A stretch of DNA of 64,000 nt, taken from Eledone cirrhosa (taxonomy: Eukaryota). Below are positions 10,453 to 59,618 of this stretch, one piece after another. The notes below the pieces were generated by a model. That model did no database searches, had not been told where the DNA came from, and saw only the letters and a list, made by a program, of their open reading frames with translations. A program made the position numbers and the translations under genes. The stretch spans positions 273,544,001 through 273,608,000 of the forward strand of contig OZ024743.1 of the NCBI GenBank assembly GCA_964016885.1, written 5' to 3'. Numbering within the stretch: the stretch's first letter is position 1; every line of letters begins with the position of its first letter.

Positions 10453-10638
10453 ACAAAGAAAGTGTGGTAAGGAGCCAGGTAGACCATTACGCACCAGAGT
10501 ACTCGATACTTAGGGTAGTAGAGTGGGTAATTGGAAAAGAGTCACGAATCCGACGGCTGAACTACGGCCGTTTCGACAACTAGATCACAAGATCTAGCTG
10601 TCGAAACGGCCGGAGTTCGGCCATCGGCTCTTTTCCTA
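10453..10638. mobile_element. Hairpin-plus-tail element family P, copy 1
   Basis: Tail (gtggtaag...gagtgggtaa) followed by the palindrome ...gccgtttcgacaactagatc acaa gatctagctgtcgaaacggc...ttcc. TA runs on both sides. Confidence 0.85.
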
Positions 10639-15122: not shown

Positions 15123-15300
15123 TGAAAAAGTGTCAGGACCCCGACGGCTGAGCTCCAGCCGTTTCGACAGCTACAACTGACCTGTTCGGATCTCGTCGGG
15201 GACCTGACTCTTTTTCCTATTACCCACTCTACTACCCTAACTAACAAGTACTCTGGTGCAGTTATGATCCACATGATATCTTACCACACCTTCTTTCTTA
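15123..15300. mobile_element. Family P, copy 2 (one arm partly deleted)
   Basis: gtcaggaccccgacg...cgtcggggacctgac followed by the tail tattacccactctactaccc...ttaccacac. Flanked by (TA)n. Confidence 0.85.
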
Positions 15301-24655: not shown

Positions 24656-24780
24656 TAGGAACAAGTAAGACCCCAGCCGTCGGGGTCTTACTTGTTCCTA
24701 TTACCCACTCTACTACCCTAAGTATTGAGTACGTTGGTGCGTTATGGTCCACCTGGTTCCTTACCACATTTCCTTCGTTA
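24656..24780. mobile_element. Family P, copy 3 (short hairpin)
   Basis: taggaacaagtaagacccc agccgtc ggggtcttacttgttccta followed by the tail. Confidence 0.85.
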
Positions 24781-37637: not shown

Positions 37638-37680
<43 letters not shown>

Positions 37681-37682
<2 letters not shown>

Positions 37683-37876
37683 CGAAGGAAATGTGGTAAG
37701 GAACCAGGTGGACCATAACGCACCAAAGTACTCAATACTTGAGGTAGTAGAGTGGGTAATAGGAACCAGTAAGACCCCGACAGCTGAGCTCAAGCCGTTT
37801 CGACGGCTAATTCTGGACTCAGTCCAGAATTAGCCGTCGAAACGGCTTGAGCTCAGCTGTCGGGGTCTTACTGGTT

Positions 37877-37880
<4 letters not shown>
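37681..37880. mobile_element. Family P, copy 4 (perfect 60-bp arms)
   Basis: 37760-37819 and 37821-37880 are perfect complements. The tail is 37681-37759. Confidence 0.92.
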
Positions 37881-37924
<44 letters not shown>

Positions 37925-44227: not shown

Positions 44228-44231
<4 letters not shown>

Positions 44232-44429
44232 CAAAAGGTGTGGTAAGATACCAGGTGGACCATAACGCACCAGTGTACTCGATAATTAGGGTAATAGAGT
44301 GGGTAATAGGAAAAGAGTCAGGACCCCAACGGCTGAGCTCCGGCCGTTTCGACAGTTAGATCCGTACAGTTCGGATCCAGCTGTCGAAACGGCAGGAGCT
44401 CAGCCGTCGGAGTCCTGACTCTTTTCCTA
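44228..44429. mobile_element. Family P, copy 5
   Basis: Tail, then taggaaaagagtcagga...tttcgacagttagatccg tacagtt cggatccagctgtcgaaa...cttttccta. Confidence 0.9.
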
Positions 44430-47985: not shown

Positions 47986-50343
47986 ATGGGTAATATCTAT
48001 CCTACGAGGTTACCCTTTAATAAAAGAGTTTGCATACCACAGCAAATAGATGACGAGACGGAGGCACAGTTCACCATAGCTAGAAATAAAATTAGACAAG
48101 TAGTAGACAGGTATACTATGAGACAGCAGACCAGGGGCCCAACAACTTGGGAGAAAACCTGTAGAAGGCTTGGTTAGCCTCAAGCAGCGCACAAGGGATG
48201 GTGAGGTAGTGTGTCTACCCACAGATAAGTCTGGTAGGATGTCAATAGATAGCATGCCGAACTACATCGAGGCAATGCAACCCCACATCACCAACACTAG
48301 CGAAGTTGCACAACTAACACACGATGGGAGAGAAAAAATCCTCAACGCTCACATGATGATGTGGACTGACATCCTAAAGCCAAGCAGACGCACTGCCAAC
48401 AACTTCCAGGCGTCTAACAATGGCATACCACCCTTGTATGGGCTCCGCAAAGACCACAAGACAGTCGACGACCCGACAACAGGACCACCAACAAGACCCG
48501 TATGCGGAGCTAATATAGCTAGCAACTACAGGATCTCCTACTTCCTCTCAATGGTTATACGCCCCATAATCAAGATGTCCCCAGATGTATGTGAAAGTAC
48601 AGAGGACCTCCTCAGCAGAATCAGTGAGTGCAACAAAAACAGGAGCCTATCCAACTGCATATAGGCAGCATGGATGTGGTGTCACTGTACCCATCCATTA
48701 ACATTCATTTTGCTGTGAAAAGATGTGTGGAGATTATCATTGAGAGTGAGGTGGAGTTCTGCGACGTCGACACAGACGAACTGGGCCTCCTACTTAGACT
48801 TACCTACGACACTGACTACCTAGACAGCCATGACCTTAGATGTTTCTGCCCTAGTAGACCTATAAGAGGTAGACCCCCCACCATAACCTCAATGGCTAAA
48901 AAGACTCCCATAGGAAGGTGGATTGGGTGGACCAAACCTATACGAACCCCGCAAAACACTGATCAGGTAAGAAAAATGGTCGCACATGCAATAGGGGCTA
49001 GTATCAAAACTACCCTAAAGGGCCACATATTTAAGTTCAATGAGAAAATCTACACCCAAAATGAGGAAGCAGCCATCGGCGTCAGCATAGCTGGTGATGT
49101 TGCCAACCTTTTCATGGTATCGTGGGAAAGGAGACTTAAAGTTCTCCTTAATGAAAGCTCCATAGACCTCATCATGTACTCTCGTTATGTAGCCGATATC
49201 AATATAGTTATAAGAACACCCCCACTAGAGAGCACTAACAAGTTTGATTTAGAACGTAGCACGATGGAAAGCATCCAGCAGATAGCTAATTCCATACACC
49301 AGAGTATAACTGTAACTATCGACTTCCCTTCCAAACACCCTAACAATAGACTACCTGTATTAGACACAGAACTCTGGATTAACACTATAGACGAGAGAGC
49401 CCAAATTCTCCACTCACACTATGCTAAACCCATGGCCTCCAAATACCTGATACTCAAAAACTCAGCAATGTCCAGTAGTGCTAAGTTTAATATTCTGATC
49501 GCAGATTTAGTACGAGTGATGAAGAATGTGTCCAGCATGTGCGACCCAACAGAAATGGAAAGACACATCCAACACTTCATCAACCGCATGCAGTTCTCTG
49601 GCTACAACCGAAGAGACAGAGTCAGAGTATACGAAGGAGCCATGGAAAAGTATAAGACCCTCATAGAACTGGACATGAAAGGAATTTGCCCACTATACAG
49701 GAGCAAATCATGGAATATCTTAGATAGGGCTAGACATAAGATAGGGAAGGCCACATCATGGTACGACAACCAGAGATATCAGAGTGTCATGTTTGTGGAC
49801 GCCACCCCTGGAGGGAAATTAACTAACCAGTGTAGAAAGGCCCTGAGAAAGACCCACTTAAAAATAAAGGTGGTAGAAAAGCCAGGAACCACCATAAAAT
49901 CCCTGATCAGCAAAACCTACCCTTTTAAGAAAACCCACTGTGCCAATAGGAAATGTATCATATGTAAGGTGAACCCCCGGATAAACTGTAAAACTAGAAA
50001 CGTAGTCTATAGCATAAGATGTACAGAGGGTACTTGCAGAAACATGACAACAACATACATAGGTGAGACAGCTCGTAGCATAGGTGAAAGGATAGACCAA
50101 CACTGGGGGGAACTAAAAGGACGAAAAAACGGGTCAGTACTATACGAACATGCTAGACAACAACATGACGGTAACATAGACAACATAGAAATTAGAATAA
50201 TATCTAAACATAGGAATGACCCAGCAGATAGGCAAATCAGAGAGGCCAGTGAAATAGAAATTAGAAGACCAAAGCTAAACAGAAAGAATGAGTGGAACAA
50301 CAACAACACCCAAATAAACAACACTGACCTAAGAGAAGTATAA
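47986..50343 (+). pseudogene. PLE polyprotein (RT and C-terminal GIY-YIG endonuclease), inactivated
   Basis: PTDKSG, PPLYGLRKDHK, RPVCGA, SMDVVSLYPSI, AIGVSIAG, RYVAD (in place of YVDD), PVLD, and NVVYSIRC...YIGETARSIGERIDQH...REASEI..RPKLN. Frameshifts near 48150 and 48650. Confidence 0.93.
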
Positions 50344-55963: not shown

Positions 55964-56443
55964 TTATTGTTCATTTAGTTTGGGTTTGAATTTATCAATA
56001 ACATTATTTTCTTTGATTTTTCTCTTGATTTCACTTGGGCTATGTAATTTGTAGAATGGGAATATTATAAATATTCCCTGACCACATGTTACTAGATGGT
56101 TACTTAGGGGTATCTGACGGACATTTGGGTCTGTGATTTGCTGTCGGTGTACCCGTGCACGTTCCGATAGTGCATCTCCAGTTTGACCGACATATAGTTC
56201 TTCACAATTCGGGCATTTAATGCAGTAAATTAGATTTCTGCTTTTGCAGTTCATATTTGCATTTGGGAATATTTTTCCAGTTTTTGTTTTCATATATTGA
56301 CCGGCGTGTATGGATTGACATGTGCCACATCGACTATCATTGCATTTAGATACAGGGAATGATTGGTCTTTGTTGTTAAGGTCAAACTTTCCTTTTGCTA
56401 GTAATTGCTTCACATTTTTCGGCTGTCTTTTACTAAGTGTCAA
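55964..56443 (-). pseudogene. PLE (Neptune-like) GIY-YIG domain, 5'-truncated
   Basis: CNDSRCGTC...CKSRNLIYCIKCPNCEELYVGQTGDALSERARVHRQQI...KENNVIDKFKPKLN. Confidence 0.9.
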
Positions 56444-56459
56444 AGATCGATCTGTGATT

Positions 56460-56721
56460 AAGTCTTTTAATTCATTACTTTGAGCAATGATCGGTAGGTT
56501 TGCTTTGGCAGTGTTTTAAGGTATTCTGGTGACATGGGTTGTGTGTCACCAGATTTTGTGGTATCTCTCAGATATTTTGGTATCTTATTAAAATGGTGGT
56601 ATCCCTTAAACCCCAGGCATATGCAGTATGCGGTCCTTAACCTCGATTCCACGCGTGACACCTTTGGCACCATACAGTAACGTCCTGTTTGCAGGCTGGT
56701 CATGCTTTCAAAGCCGAAGTT

Positions 56722-56783: not shown

Positions 56784-56976
56784 GTAATAGGAAAATATTT
56801 GACCCAGACGGCAGAGCTCAAGCCGTTTCGACGACTATTTCTAGAAATAGTCGTCGAAACGGCTTGAGCTCTGCCGTCTGGGTCAAACATTTTCCTATTA
56901 CCCACTCTACTACCCTAATTACTGAGTACTCTGGTGCGTTATGGTCCATCTAGTTCGTTACCACTCTTCCTCGTTA
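56784..56976. mobile_element. Family P, copy 6
   Basis: Near-perfect spacerless palindrome centred on tttctagaaa, followed by the tail. Confidence 0.92.
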
Positions 56977-57242: not shown

Positions 57243-57590
57243 GAGGAAATTATAGTTCACTTGAAGCATTGTGTAATGAGGTATAAACGTTTGTATTTGT
57301 AAAGCCAAAACAATGCAGGTATGGATATAGAATATGAATGCAAATGCAAAAGATATTGTTGACAATTAGTCTTTTATCTTAAATTTATTTAAGTATCCTT
57401 AATTTTCGAGATAATATCTCTTCTTCGGAGGGAAGTAAAGTGGTTAATCCAGCGTTCTAACTGGTAAGCTATTTATAACGCTGGTTTAACCAGTTTACTT
57501 CCCTCCGAAGAAGAGATATTATCTCGAAAATTAAGGATTTATATTCTATATCCATACCTGCATTGTTTTGGCTTTACAAATACAAACGTT
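57240..57590. mobile_element. Fold-back element with an HHR-like motif (57502-57537) and a ~45-nt tail
   Basis: 57285-57457 is inverted at 57477-57590, with ~60 nt missing from the right arm. The motif reads cct CCGAAGA a gagata t tatctc GAAA at TA agg. Confidence 0.82.
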
Positions 57591-58566: not shown

Positions 58567-59618
58567 TTCGTTTCTGAATTTGTTTAGCAAATGGGAAAAA
58601 ATGGTAAATGATGAAGCAAATGGGACCTGCCCCTTGTATAGGAGCAAATTTTGGAATAGAATAGAAAGAACTAGGAATAAGGCTAATAGAATAAACTCAT
58701 GGTATGATAGCAATAAATACCAGAGTATAATGTTCATCGATACAACCCCTAGAGGTGAATTAGCTTACAAATTTAGAAGGGCCCTAGATAAACATAAACT
58801 CAATATTAAGATAGTAGAAAGACCAGGTACCTCCATAAAAACACTTATTAGCAAGACATACCCTTTTCAAAGACCCCCCTGTATAGATAAAAAAATGTAT
58901 AACCTGTAAATTAAGCCCCCACATTAATTGTAACACTAGAAATGTAATATATAGCATAAGATGTACTGAAGGACAATGTAGAGATAAAAATATAGTGTAC
59001 ATAGGTGAGACAGCTCGTAGTGTAGGGGAACGGAAAAATGAACACTGGCGAGACCTCCAAGATAGTAAAGAATCATCTGTACTCTACCAACATGCTAAAA
59101 TATAACATAAGGGTAAATTAGAGAACATAGAAATAAAAATCTACACATTGAAAAGATGCAATGTTTAGACAAATCACAGAGGCAATAAAAGAATTACAAC
59201 CGAAATTAAATAGAAAACATGAGTGGAACAGCAACATCACAACTTACAATTAAGGACACAATGAAAACACACACGCACATATAACAAACAACCAACCAGT
59301 AACATGTAAATAAACAAATAAATAAACGAATATAAACACACACAGACACCCGGATGTGCCGCATGCGCAGACTGAGCACACAACACACACACAGAAACAA
59401 GATGGCGTAGGACAGAATAAAGGAGAAACACAAAAACAAAGAAAAGAATCCCCAGTCACTGAAGAGGTCACAGAATGTGTGACGAAAGAACTTTGACTAT
59501 ATATAAACAACCAACCGGAAATTTATAAATTACTAAATTTATAAATTTATTATAATAAATTGAAGTGAAAGCACTGGTGCGTGTGTTTCTTATTGGCAAC
59601 ATGACCCTCCCAAAGTAT

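Follow-up and report, generated by a model that had tools for sequence, protein, structure and literature searches.

Perfect hairpins of Eledone cirrhosa as probable head-to-head insertions, in very short form, of an active Hydra-like Penelope element

The hairpin elements of family P in the Eledone cirrhosa genome probably arose as very short insertions, arranged head to head, of an active Hydra-like Penelope element, through twin internal priming on one RNA and run-off to its capped end. Judging from sequence, we put the probability of this reading at roughly two in three. The family was recognized in a 64,000-nt stretch of contig OZ024743.1 (the window), where the first-pass annotation had placed six copies. 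All six are present at the positions it gave, have a tail in common, and are surrounded by (TA)n. Their features are listed below in window positions, with strands where assigned. L denotes the long, tailed arm and S the short, untailed arm, and parent positions count from +1, the A of TTT/AGTCC.

37643..37681: (TA)n target, left of the focal copy
37682..37761, minus strand: tail, 80 nt (+59..+138), between two putative reverse-transcription start sites
37683..37819, minus strand: long (tailed, L) arm, parent +1..+137, 100% identity to the active parent
37820..37820, minus strand: apex, a single untemplated base, G in L-arm sense (parent -1 = T), putative cap copy
37821..37880, plus strand: short (untailed, S) arm, parent +1..+60; ends TTCC, then TA common with the target
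37821..37866, plus strand: hammerhead 3' half without 5' core (from sequence and parent fold)
37881..37924: (TA)n target, right of the focal copy
10453..10636: older L+S copy, GATC-type subfamily
15123..15298: older S+L copy, L arm with internal deletion
24656..24779: S+L copy, trimmed arms (S from +42, L from +35)
44228..44427: older L+S copy; S arm from the +1 equivalent (AGTTCGG)
56784..56975: S+L copy, ATTT subfamily, both arms from about +5

The focal copy is exactly the reverse complement of parent +1..+60, one untemplated base (G), and parent +1..+137. Its sequence pairs perfectly, as first reported, in 61-bp arms around one base, and the predicted fold has 60 pairs and a 3-nt loop (z = -24). 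The broader statement that the arms pair almost perfectly within a copy holds in four of the six. It fails for 15123, where an internal deletion lies within the tailed arm, and for 24656, whose arms are merely 20 bp and without GAAA. The old copies at 10453 and 44228 have several arm mismatches each. The apices quoted earlier for 10453, 37681, 44228, and 56784 were recovered, and the full arms carry GTC GAAA CGGC as described. The common tail, which in a tandem parent is the leader of the next unit, was also confirmed, with a length of 80 nt (parent +59..+138) instead of ~75 nt.

The description of the arms as copy-specific had to be abandoned. For the focal 198 bp, 24 sequences at 100% identity, one of them the window copy, were found among 40 scored of 952 candidates, and the arms of family P are subfamily-specific. 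Identical focal-type copies sit on many contigs; 29 of the 30 fetched loci, those that could be oriented, are dispersed (TA)n insertions with differing immediate flanks. The (TA)n arrays mask the target-site duplication of the family. Genome-wide, the exact hairpin-core pattern matches at least 16,280 loci (control pattern, 0) and the young-subfamily arm-end pattern 35,824 places, both counts being lower bounds. Apices among the listed core-pattern matches vary almost copy by copy. The contiguous 484-kb stretch around the window holds 27 match clusters, a local density of one per 18 kb. At C4:273.5377-273.5382 Mb (L101:3697-4190), a three-part array of L+S, S+S, and S+L spaced by (TA)12 suggests local hairpin duplication.

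The earlier prediction of a ribozyme-bearing, non-palindromic Penelope-like element (PLE) as parent was borne out, including its ORF. The parent of family P is a non-palindromic PLE of 3,531 bp with an intact 716-aa ORF, tandem arrays, and a complete hammerhead. A pattern search for a parent with a helix II of 4-30 nt gave 36 matches and no true parent. Placing the 5' core 30-60 nt before the arm gave 58 non-palindromic matches, an atypical CUGAGGA minority. In two non-palindromic copies, the end of a Penelope-type endonuclease lies about 1.2 kb upstream on the same strand. A DNA search with this region returned 2,986 candidates (the 40 scored were 90-100% identical), and a protein search of the genome revealed many open frames near 784 aa with tandem spacing. 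Three head-to-tail arrays, at C1:437.20 Mb, C2:51.28 Mb, and C1:91.47 Mb, have units of 3,528-3,543 bp, and partial tandems are also present. The landmarks of the parent are:

-29: TATA-like box TATTTAAA (young parent)
after +41: predicted ribozyme cut
+58, then TAT: S end
+138, then TAT: L end
+232: ATG
near +2385: stop codon
+3489: ribozyme core

The 716-aa ORF contains the motifs YRDD (RT) and IYQ...YIG (GIY-YIG). Its nearest Atlas clusters carry HTH_animal, GIY-YIG, and RVT_1, and 2,046 relatives were found among 8,000 scored proteins, the best about 40% identical. A Pfam scan of the ORF returned 0 families, a PDB profile search with the protein 0 matches, and a profile comparison with a GIY-YIG fragment of the window a probability of 6%. 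In the window, a 183-aa frame with a GIY-YIG domain at 55967-56515 (minus strand; Pfam E 6e-6) is the end of another PLE family. The window also holds long open frames of 180 and 571 aa at 48122-50340 (plus strand), which belong to another Penelope-like RT with no Pfam match, and a similar fragment near 58700-58906. An unrelated AT-rich hairpin with 68-bp arms (57395-57538) adjoins a 281-nt repeat that has further copies at 58-338 and 498-778.

The parent has the traits of EN+ PLEs: a single RT and GIY-YIG ORF, tandem pLTRs with a hammerhead motif, and an inverted 5'-truncated copy with a one-sided tail. Naiad was excluded as its class, the parent endonuclease being C-terminal. The marks given for the Hydra clade in the accessible text of PMC8557442 recur in the parent: DKT in place of DKG (HSDKTGN), a CxCX5C linker (CNCPDRSIC), CxxC and CxH flanking E and N (CNLC..E..N..CKH), a C-terminal GIY-YIG, and insertion in (TA)n. 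The presence or absence of CCHH was judged by eye. The parent differs from the clade in having RWR where Hydra has RWK, a length of 3,531 bp versus generally <3 kb, and a U3-A8 core versus the canonical hammerhead. Because of its size, its U3-A8 core, and a classification made by motifs, we file the parent as Hydra-like only.

The sequence and the parent fold support the proposed reading of the arm as a hammerhead 3' half, the ribozyme being of type I. In the focal S arm, the order is helix II 3' strand, GAAA (37839-37842), helix III, GUC site, and helix I 3' strand. Helix III holds the palindromic TGAGCTCA (37848-37855), and the predicted cut falls after 37861. The L arm carries the mirror image. 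A complete catalytic core is absent from the hairpin, whose arm is locked in a 60-bp stem, and the Rfam gathering scan of the window gave 0 hits. The minimum free energy fold of the parent region contains the hammerhead three-way junction, with a z-score of 0.13, so that the energy alone provides no evidence. The missing 5' half was supposed to be CTGANGA, which did not hold. In a hand tally of the first 100 of 5,014 core matches in the genome, CUGANGA was found in 0, UUGANAA in 77, CUGANAA in 21, and UUGAAGA in 2. U3-A8 hammerheads have been described for Cercyon PLEs; those minimal ribozymes resemble the parent in the covariant U3-A8 core, a long helix II, G10.1-C11.1, and a palindromic helix III (PMC4209133, accessible text). 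The parent differs from them in its longer helix III (6 bp in the fold), a putative transcription start that splits the ribozyme, and an amplified C3.A8 lineage. The older subfamily with this mismatched core (21/100) stands beside U3-A8 (77) and rare C3-G8 copies; it may be an intermediate in a compensatory change, or it may indicate that cleavage can be dispensed with. At window 59459-59505 (plus strand), a canonical CUGAAGA hammerhead-like motif belongs to another repeat family and also occurs in loci L039 and L079.

Every arm is a piece of the leader of the tandem 3,531-bp parent, which encodes an RT and GIY-YIG-type protein. In our reading, this protein would cut both strands of AT-rich DNA, as known in vitro for another PLE. 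It would begin cDNA synthesis internally, following +58 for S and +138 for L, where the TAT next to each of the two sites can pair with the target. One site of each kind appears to be used per event. Among 117 short pairs (145 found, 28 query-selected ones left out), 108 are L+S, 3 LL, 6 intermediate, and 0 SS. By hand tally, 29 of the 30 long head-to-head insertions with both ends seen are L+S, and one is S+S. The first-pass annotation proposed checking whether arms pair by locus, and they do agree by locus and subfamily. At six diagnostic sites, the arms are discordant in 23/623 comparisons, against a mean of 52% and a minimum of 40% in 500 shuffles; this equals the background rate (155/4452). 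Subfamily succession in time explains part of the concordance, the mean arm-arm mismatches of the partly successive subfamilies ranging from 0.46 to 3.0. The subfamilies CCG and TTG nevertheless overlap in age (1.44 and 1.25), and no pair differs at both of their diagnostic sites despite this overlap. We infer that the S and L sites of an event lie on the same template, one of each being used. The in vitro results in the accessible text of PMC11167929, which report no strand difference in start-site use, do not account for the strict L+S rule. At loci L033 and L034, P arms are joined head to head, without TA, to the GIY-YIG-coding ends of other Penelope families, possibly as rare two-template events. 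Apparent fusions of an arm with other PLE ends were dropped as two-template evidence, being pattern-selected and often nested or deleted neighbours.

A total of 14,161 arms contain +1..+25, and a hand tally of the first 100 gave 36 stops at +1, 29 at -1..-4, 1 at -6, and 0 at -7..-16, the other 34 arms reading through. A near-census of C1 0-21 Mb, comprising 114 arms, found 74 starts at -4..+8, 1 within -5..-11 (at -7), and 23 at +12..+41, and 16 arms that read through; only 2 start at the ribozyme cut site, that is, no pile-up. The short-arm boundary at -4..+1 is Inr-like and lies inside helix II. Older subfamilies have a poor TATA-like box (TATTCATTTA etc.), and no good DPE match was found. 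Among 83 contexts with an intact core, TT/TC-AGT at +1 is kept in 83/83, across subfamilies with differing loops, and -1 is T or C in all (C in 6) and G in none.

The arms nevertheless often carry an extra G. For the first 100 of 343 loci with a single apex base between two +1 arms, this base is C in 51, G in 37, A in 8, and T in 4; the 88 with C or G correspond to an extra G on one of the arms, L or S. Across all 36 loci with two-base apices, G directly precedes +1 on 35 of 72 arm ends (p = 1.3e-5 versus 25%), with CG in 7 versus GC in 1 and AT in 0. Where solo arms abut (TA)n, 14 of 76 loci show G at -1, compared with a background of 4% for G after TATATATAT. The youngest subfamily, with T at -1, has C or G at 27 of 35 apices (hand tally). 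Several of these tallies were made by hand on the first listed matches from the start of C1 and are thus non-random samples. Some apex C or G can be templated by the minority parent with C at -1 (6/83 contexts), and C may be added by the RT without a cap. An untemplated 5' G in L1 and SVA, which the extra G resembles, has been put down to cap copying (PMC3287187, accessible text), and Penelope transcription has been reported to begin in the upstream pLTR (PMC2377424, accessible text). The sequence data point to a transcript whose capped start is at about +1, inside helix II, and which therefore would lack the ribozyme 5' half. The cDNAs would run off the capped end, in many cases with a copy of the cap as an additional G, be trimmed by a few bases, and be joined head to head with 0-4 nt of microhomology or filler, giving a hairpin with a one-sided tail.

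The L+S layout is continuous from short stubs up to 16-kb insertions. In the long insertions, loci picked for long open frames, 35 of 36 arms pass +1 at their second arrival there. Both arms pass in 28 of 30, versus 34 of the 100 +1-containing arms tallied above. Passing or stopping at +1 is thus a property of the event and not of the arm. The one stop, locus L354, is a full-length unit with two untailed ends and the sole exception to both rules. The rarity of +1 stops in long cDNAs seems to call for a second template class, a weaker part of our reading. Templates without a +1 end, such as the circles or multimers expected from arrays with two complete hammerheads, could give the long insertions and tandem arrays. 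Circular templates for tandems were proposed in PMC4209133 (accessible text). Both four-unit arrays, at C1:437.198-437.214 Mb (L335, L175, and L176) and C1:91.473-91.494 Mb (L179, L180, and L337), alternate ABAB inside one S/L-bounded insertion; the pattern rests on one site in one array and on four sites and six singletons in the other. They hint at a two-unit circular template read twice, or could reflect later duplication of a two-unit block. At the inner array end (C1:91.489-91.493 Mb; L180:8170-10000 into L337), a 55-bp ORF piece (+1755..+1812) forms at least 30 head-to-tail repeats and resembles repeated RT slippage or template jumps.

Several other explanations of these ends were weighed. 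An RT stall, or a nuclease cut of the RNA, atop helix II could set the boundary under the same two-ended priming, as the predicted upper stem has -4..+1 at the top of its 3' strand, immediately ahead of the apical loop. We consider this unlikely, given the untemplated G at -1 on both arms, the conservation of TT/TC-AGT where the upper stem differs (L100), and the 35 of 36 long cDNAs that traverse the same structure. Rather less probable is an origin of the arms from two joined RNAs, usually of the same source locus, held by a protein dimer or by kissing of helix III loops. The palindromic TGAGCTCA of helix III would allow such contacts, PLE hammerheads have been proposed to act as dimers (PMC4209133) and a PLE protein dimer has been predicted (PMC11167929; accessible text in both cases), and some arms are fused to fragments of other repeats. 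Most of these hetero-joins, however, look like nested or deleted neighbours in a pattern-selected set, and the one-L-one-S rule and the coupled fate at +1 are simplest on one template.

The first-pass annotation favoured snap-back of a single cDNA at helix II, followed by self-copying that replaces the ribozyme 5' half. The near-identity of the arms and their meeting near helix II fit this idea, which is related to the self-priming by which PMC3846280 (accessible text) interprets palindromic junctions of this kind. The untailed arm could then not reach further upstream than the tailed one. Among 54 clean short junctions (of 101 listed; gap <=13 nt, copies with clustered mismatches left out), hand tallying found S further in 23, L further in 19, and equal ends in 12 (23 versus 19, p = 0.64). 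In 29 long L+S insertions, also tallied by hand, S is the longer arm in 13 and L in 16, with differences of 57 nt to >10 kb and junction overlaps of 0-8 nt. Later central deletions could blur the short junctions but hardly the long ones. Moreover, arms that start at the same position with 0-2 apex bases between them provide no loop, and the untemplated G occurs on both arms, S arms bearing their own in 37 of 100. Snap-back is therefore strongly disfavoured and, in our judgement, improbable. Least probable is a self-contained palindromic non-autonomous element, mobile as a unit and kept symmetric by intra-element conversion, the other origin suggested at first. The 24 identical 198-bp copies would suit it, and re-mobilisation of some stubs is possible. 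It is disfavoured by apices that differ almost per copy (the focal apex class has 343 loci versus 16,280 hairpins), by the same L+S layout extending to 16-kb insertions, and by rare alleles, of which 91 are unmirrored and 3 mirrored, all 3 in one old copy, which argues against ongoing conversion.

Capped run-off of two cDNAs from one RNA thus remains our preferred reading, and it has parallels in known systems. In L1 twin priming, two target ends prime on one RNA; its pieces are without overlap and its second site is unfixed, whereas family P has full overlap and both sites fixed. Retroviral strong-stop DNA is likewise a run-off to a capped 5' end. MITEs and foldback DNA transposons have symmetric terminal inverted repeats that are fixed and match a transposase parent; this identity was ruled out for family P by its asymmetric ends, variable apex, and RT-element parent. 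Non-LTR retrozymes (10.64898/2026.07.22.740005, accessible text) are, like family P, short non-coding derivatives of PLE pLTRs. They are head-to-tail with complete hammerheads, and the head-to-head arms and half ribozyme of family P exclude this identity. Family P resembles the EN+ PLE insertions in the accessible text of PMC3846280 and PMC8557442 in head-to-head arms, a one-ended tail, partial and full tandems, a pLTR hammerhead, and (TA)n targets. It differs in consisting mostly of two arms of about 60 and 140 nt, with one boundary inside the ribozyme, and in a tail of 80 nt versus 30-40. Its tens of thousands of copies, unlike those earlier insertions, permit counting.

The closest experimental precedent is Poseidon PAc of Anolis, of a different clade, in vitro (PMC11167929, accessible text). 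As in our reading of family P, both target strands are cut and extended, there are two internal RT starts with the tail between them, and the RNA 5' end sets the product length. The same text leaves later steps open. It reports that hammerhead cleavage is dispensable in vitro, with no reads at the cut site, which by analogy would weigh against an essential role of the ribozyme. One-L-one-S pairing, a capped run-off boundary, and two template classes are absent from that text. Our literature search found no description of capped twin run-off stubs in the accessible texts; related end maps may be present in the supplements of PMC11167929 and PMC8557442.

Tentatively, the start inside helix II may act as a licensing switch. 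Half-ribozyme mRNAs, their rear priming sites removed by self-cleavage, would yield only abortive hairpins, and arrays with two ribozymes would yield one- or two-unit circles and thereby full copies and ABAB arrays; L+S would reflect an asymmetric RT dimer on one RNA. This scheme is less likely than not to be correct as a whole.

As a by-product of an element of known type, family P shows an established layout in extremely short form, and the hairpins themselves are probably dead. The origin of inverted and tandem PLE structures and the purpose of the hammerhead are described as open in the accessible text of PMC8557442 and PMC11167929. Family P offers an intact young parent together with tens of thousands of products, from whose ends precise predictions follow: a start within the ribozyme, capped and located at -4..+1; a second, endless template; and priming at two fixed sites of a single RNA, each serving once per event. 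Capped twin run-off would explain one of the major classes of perfect hairpin in the E. cirrhosa genome, and these hairpins may be sources of double-stranded RNA.
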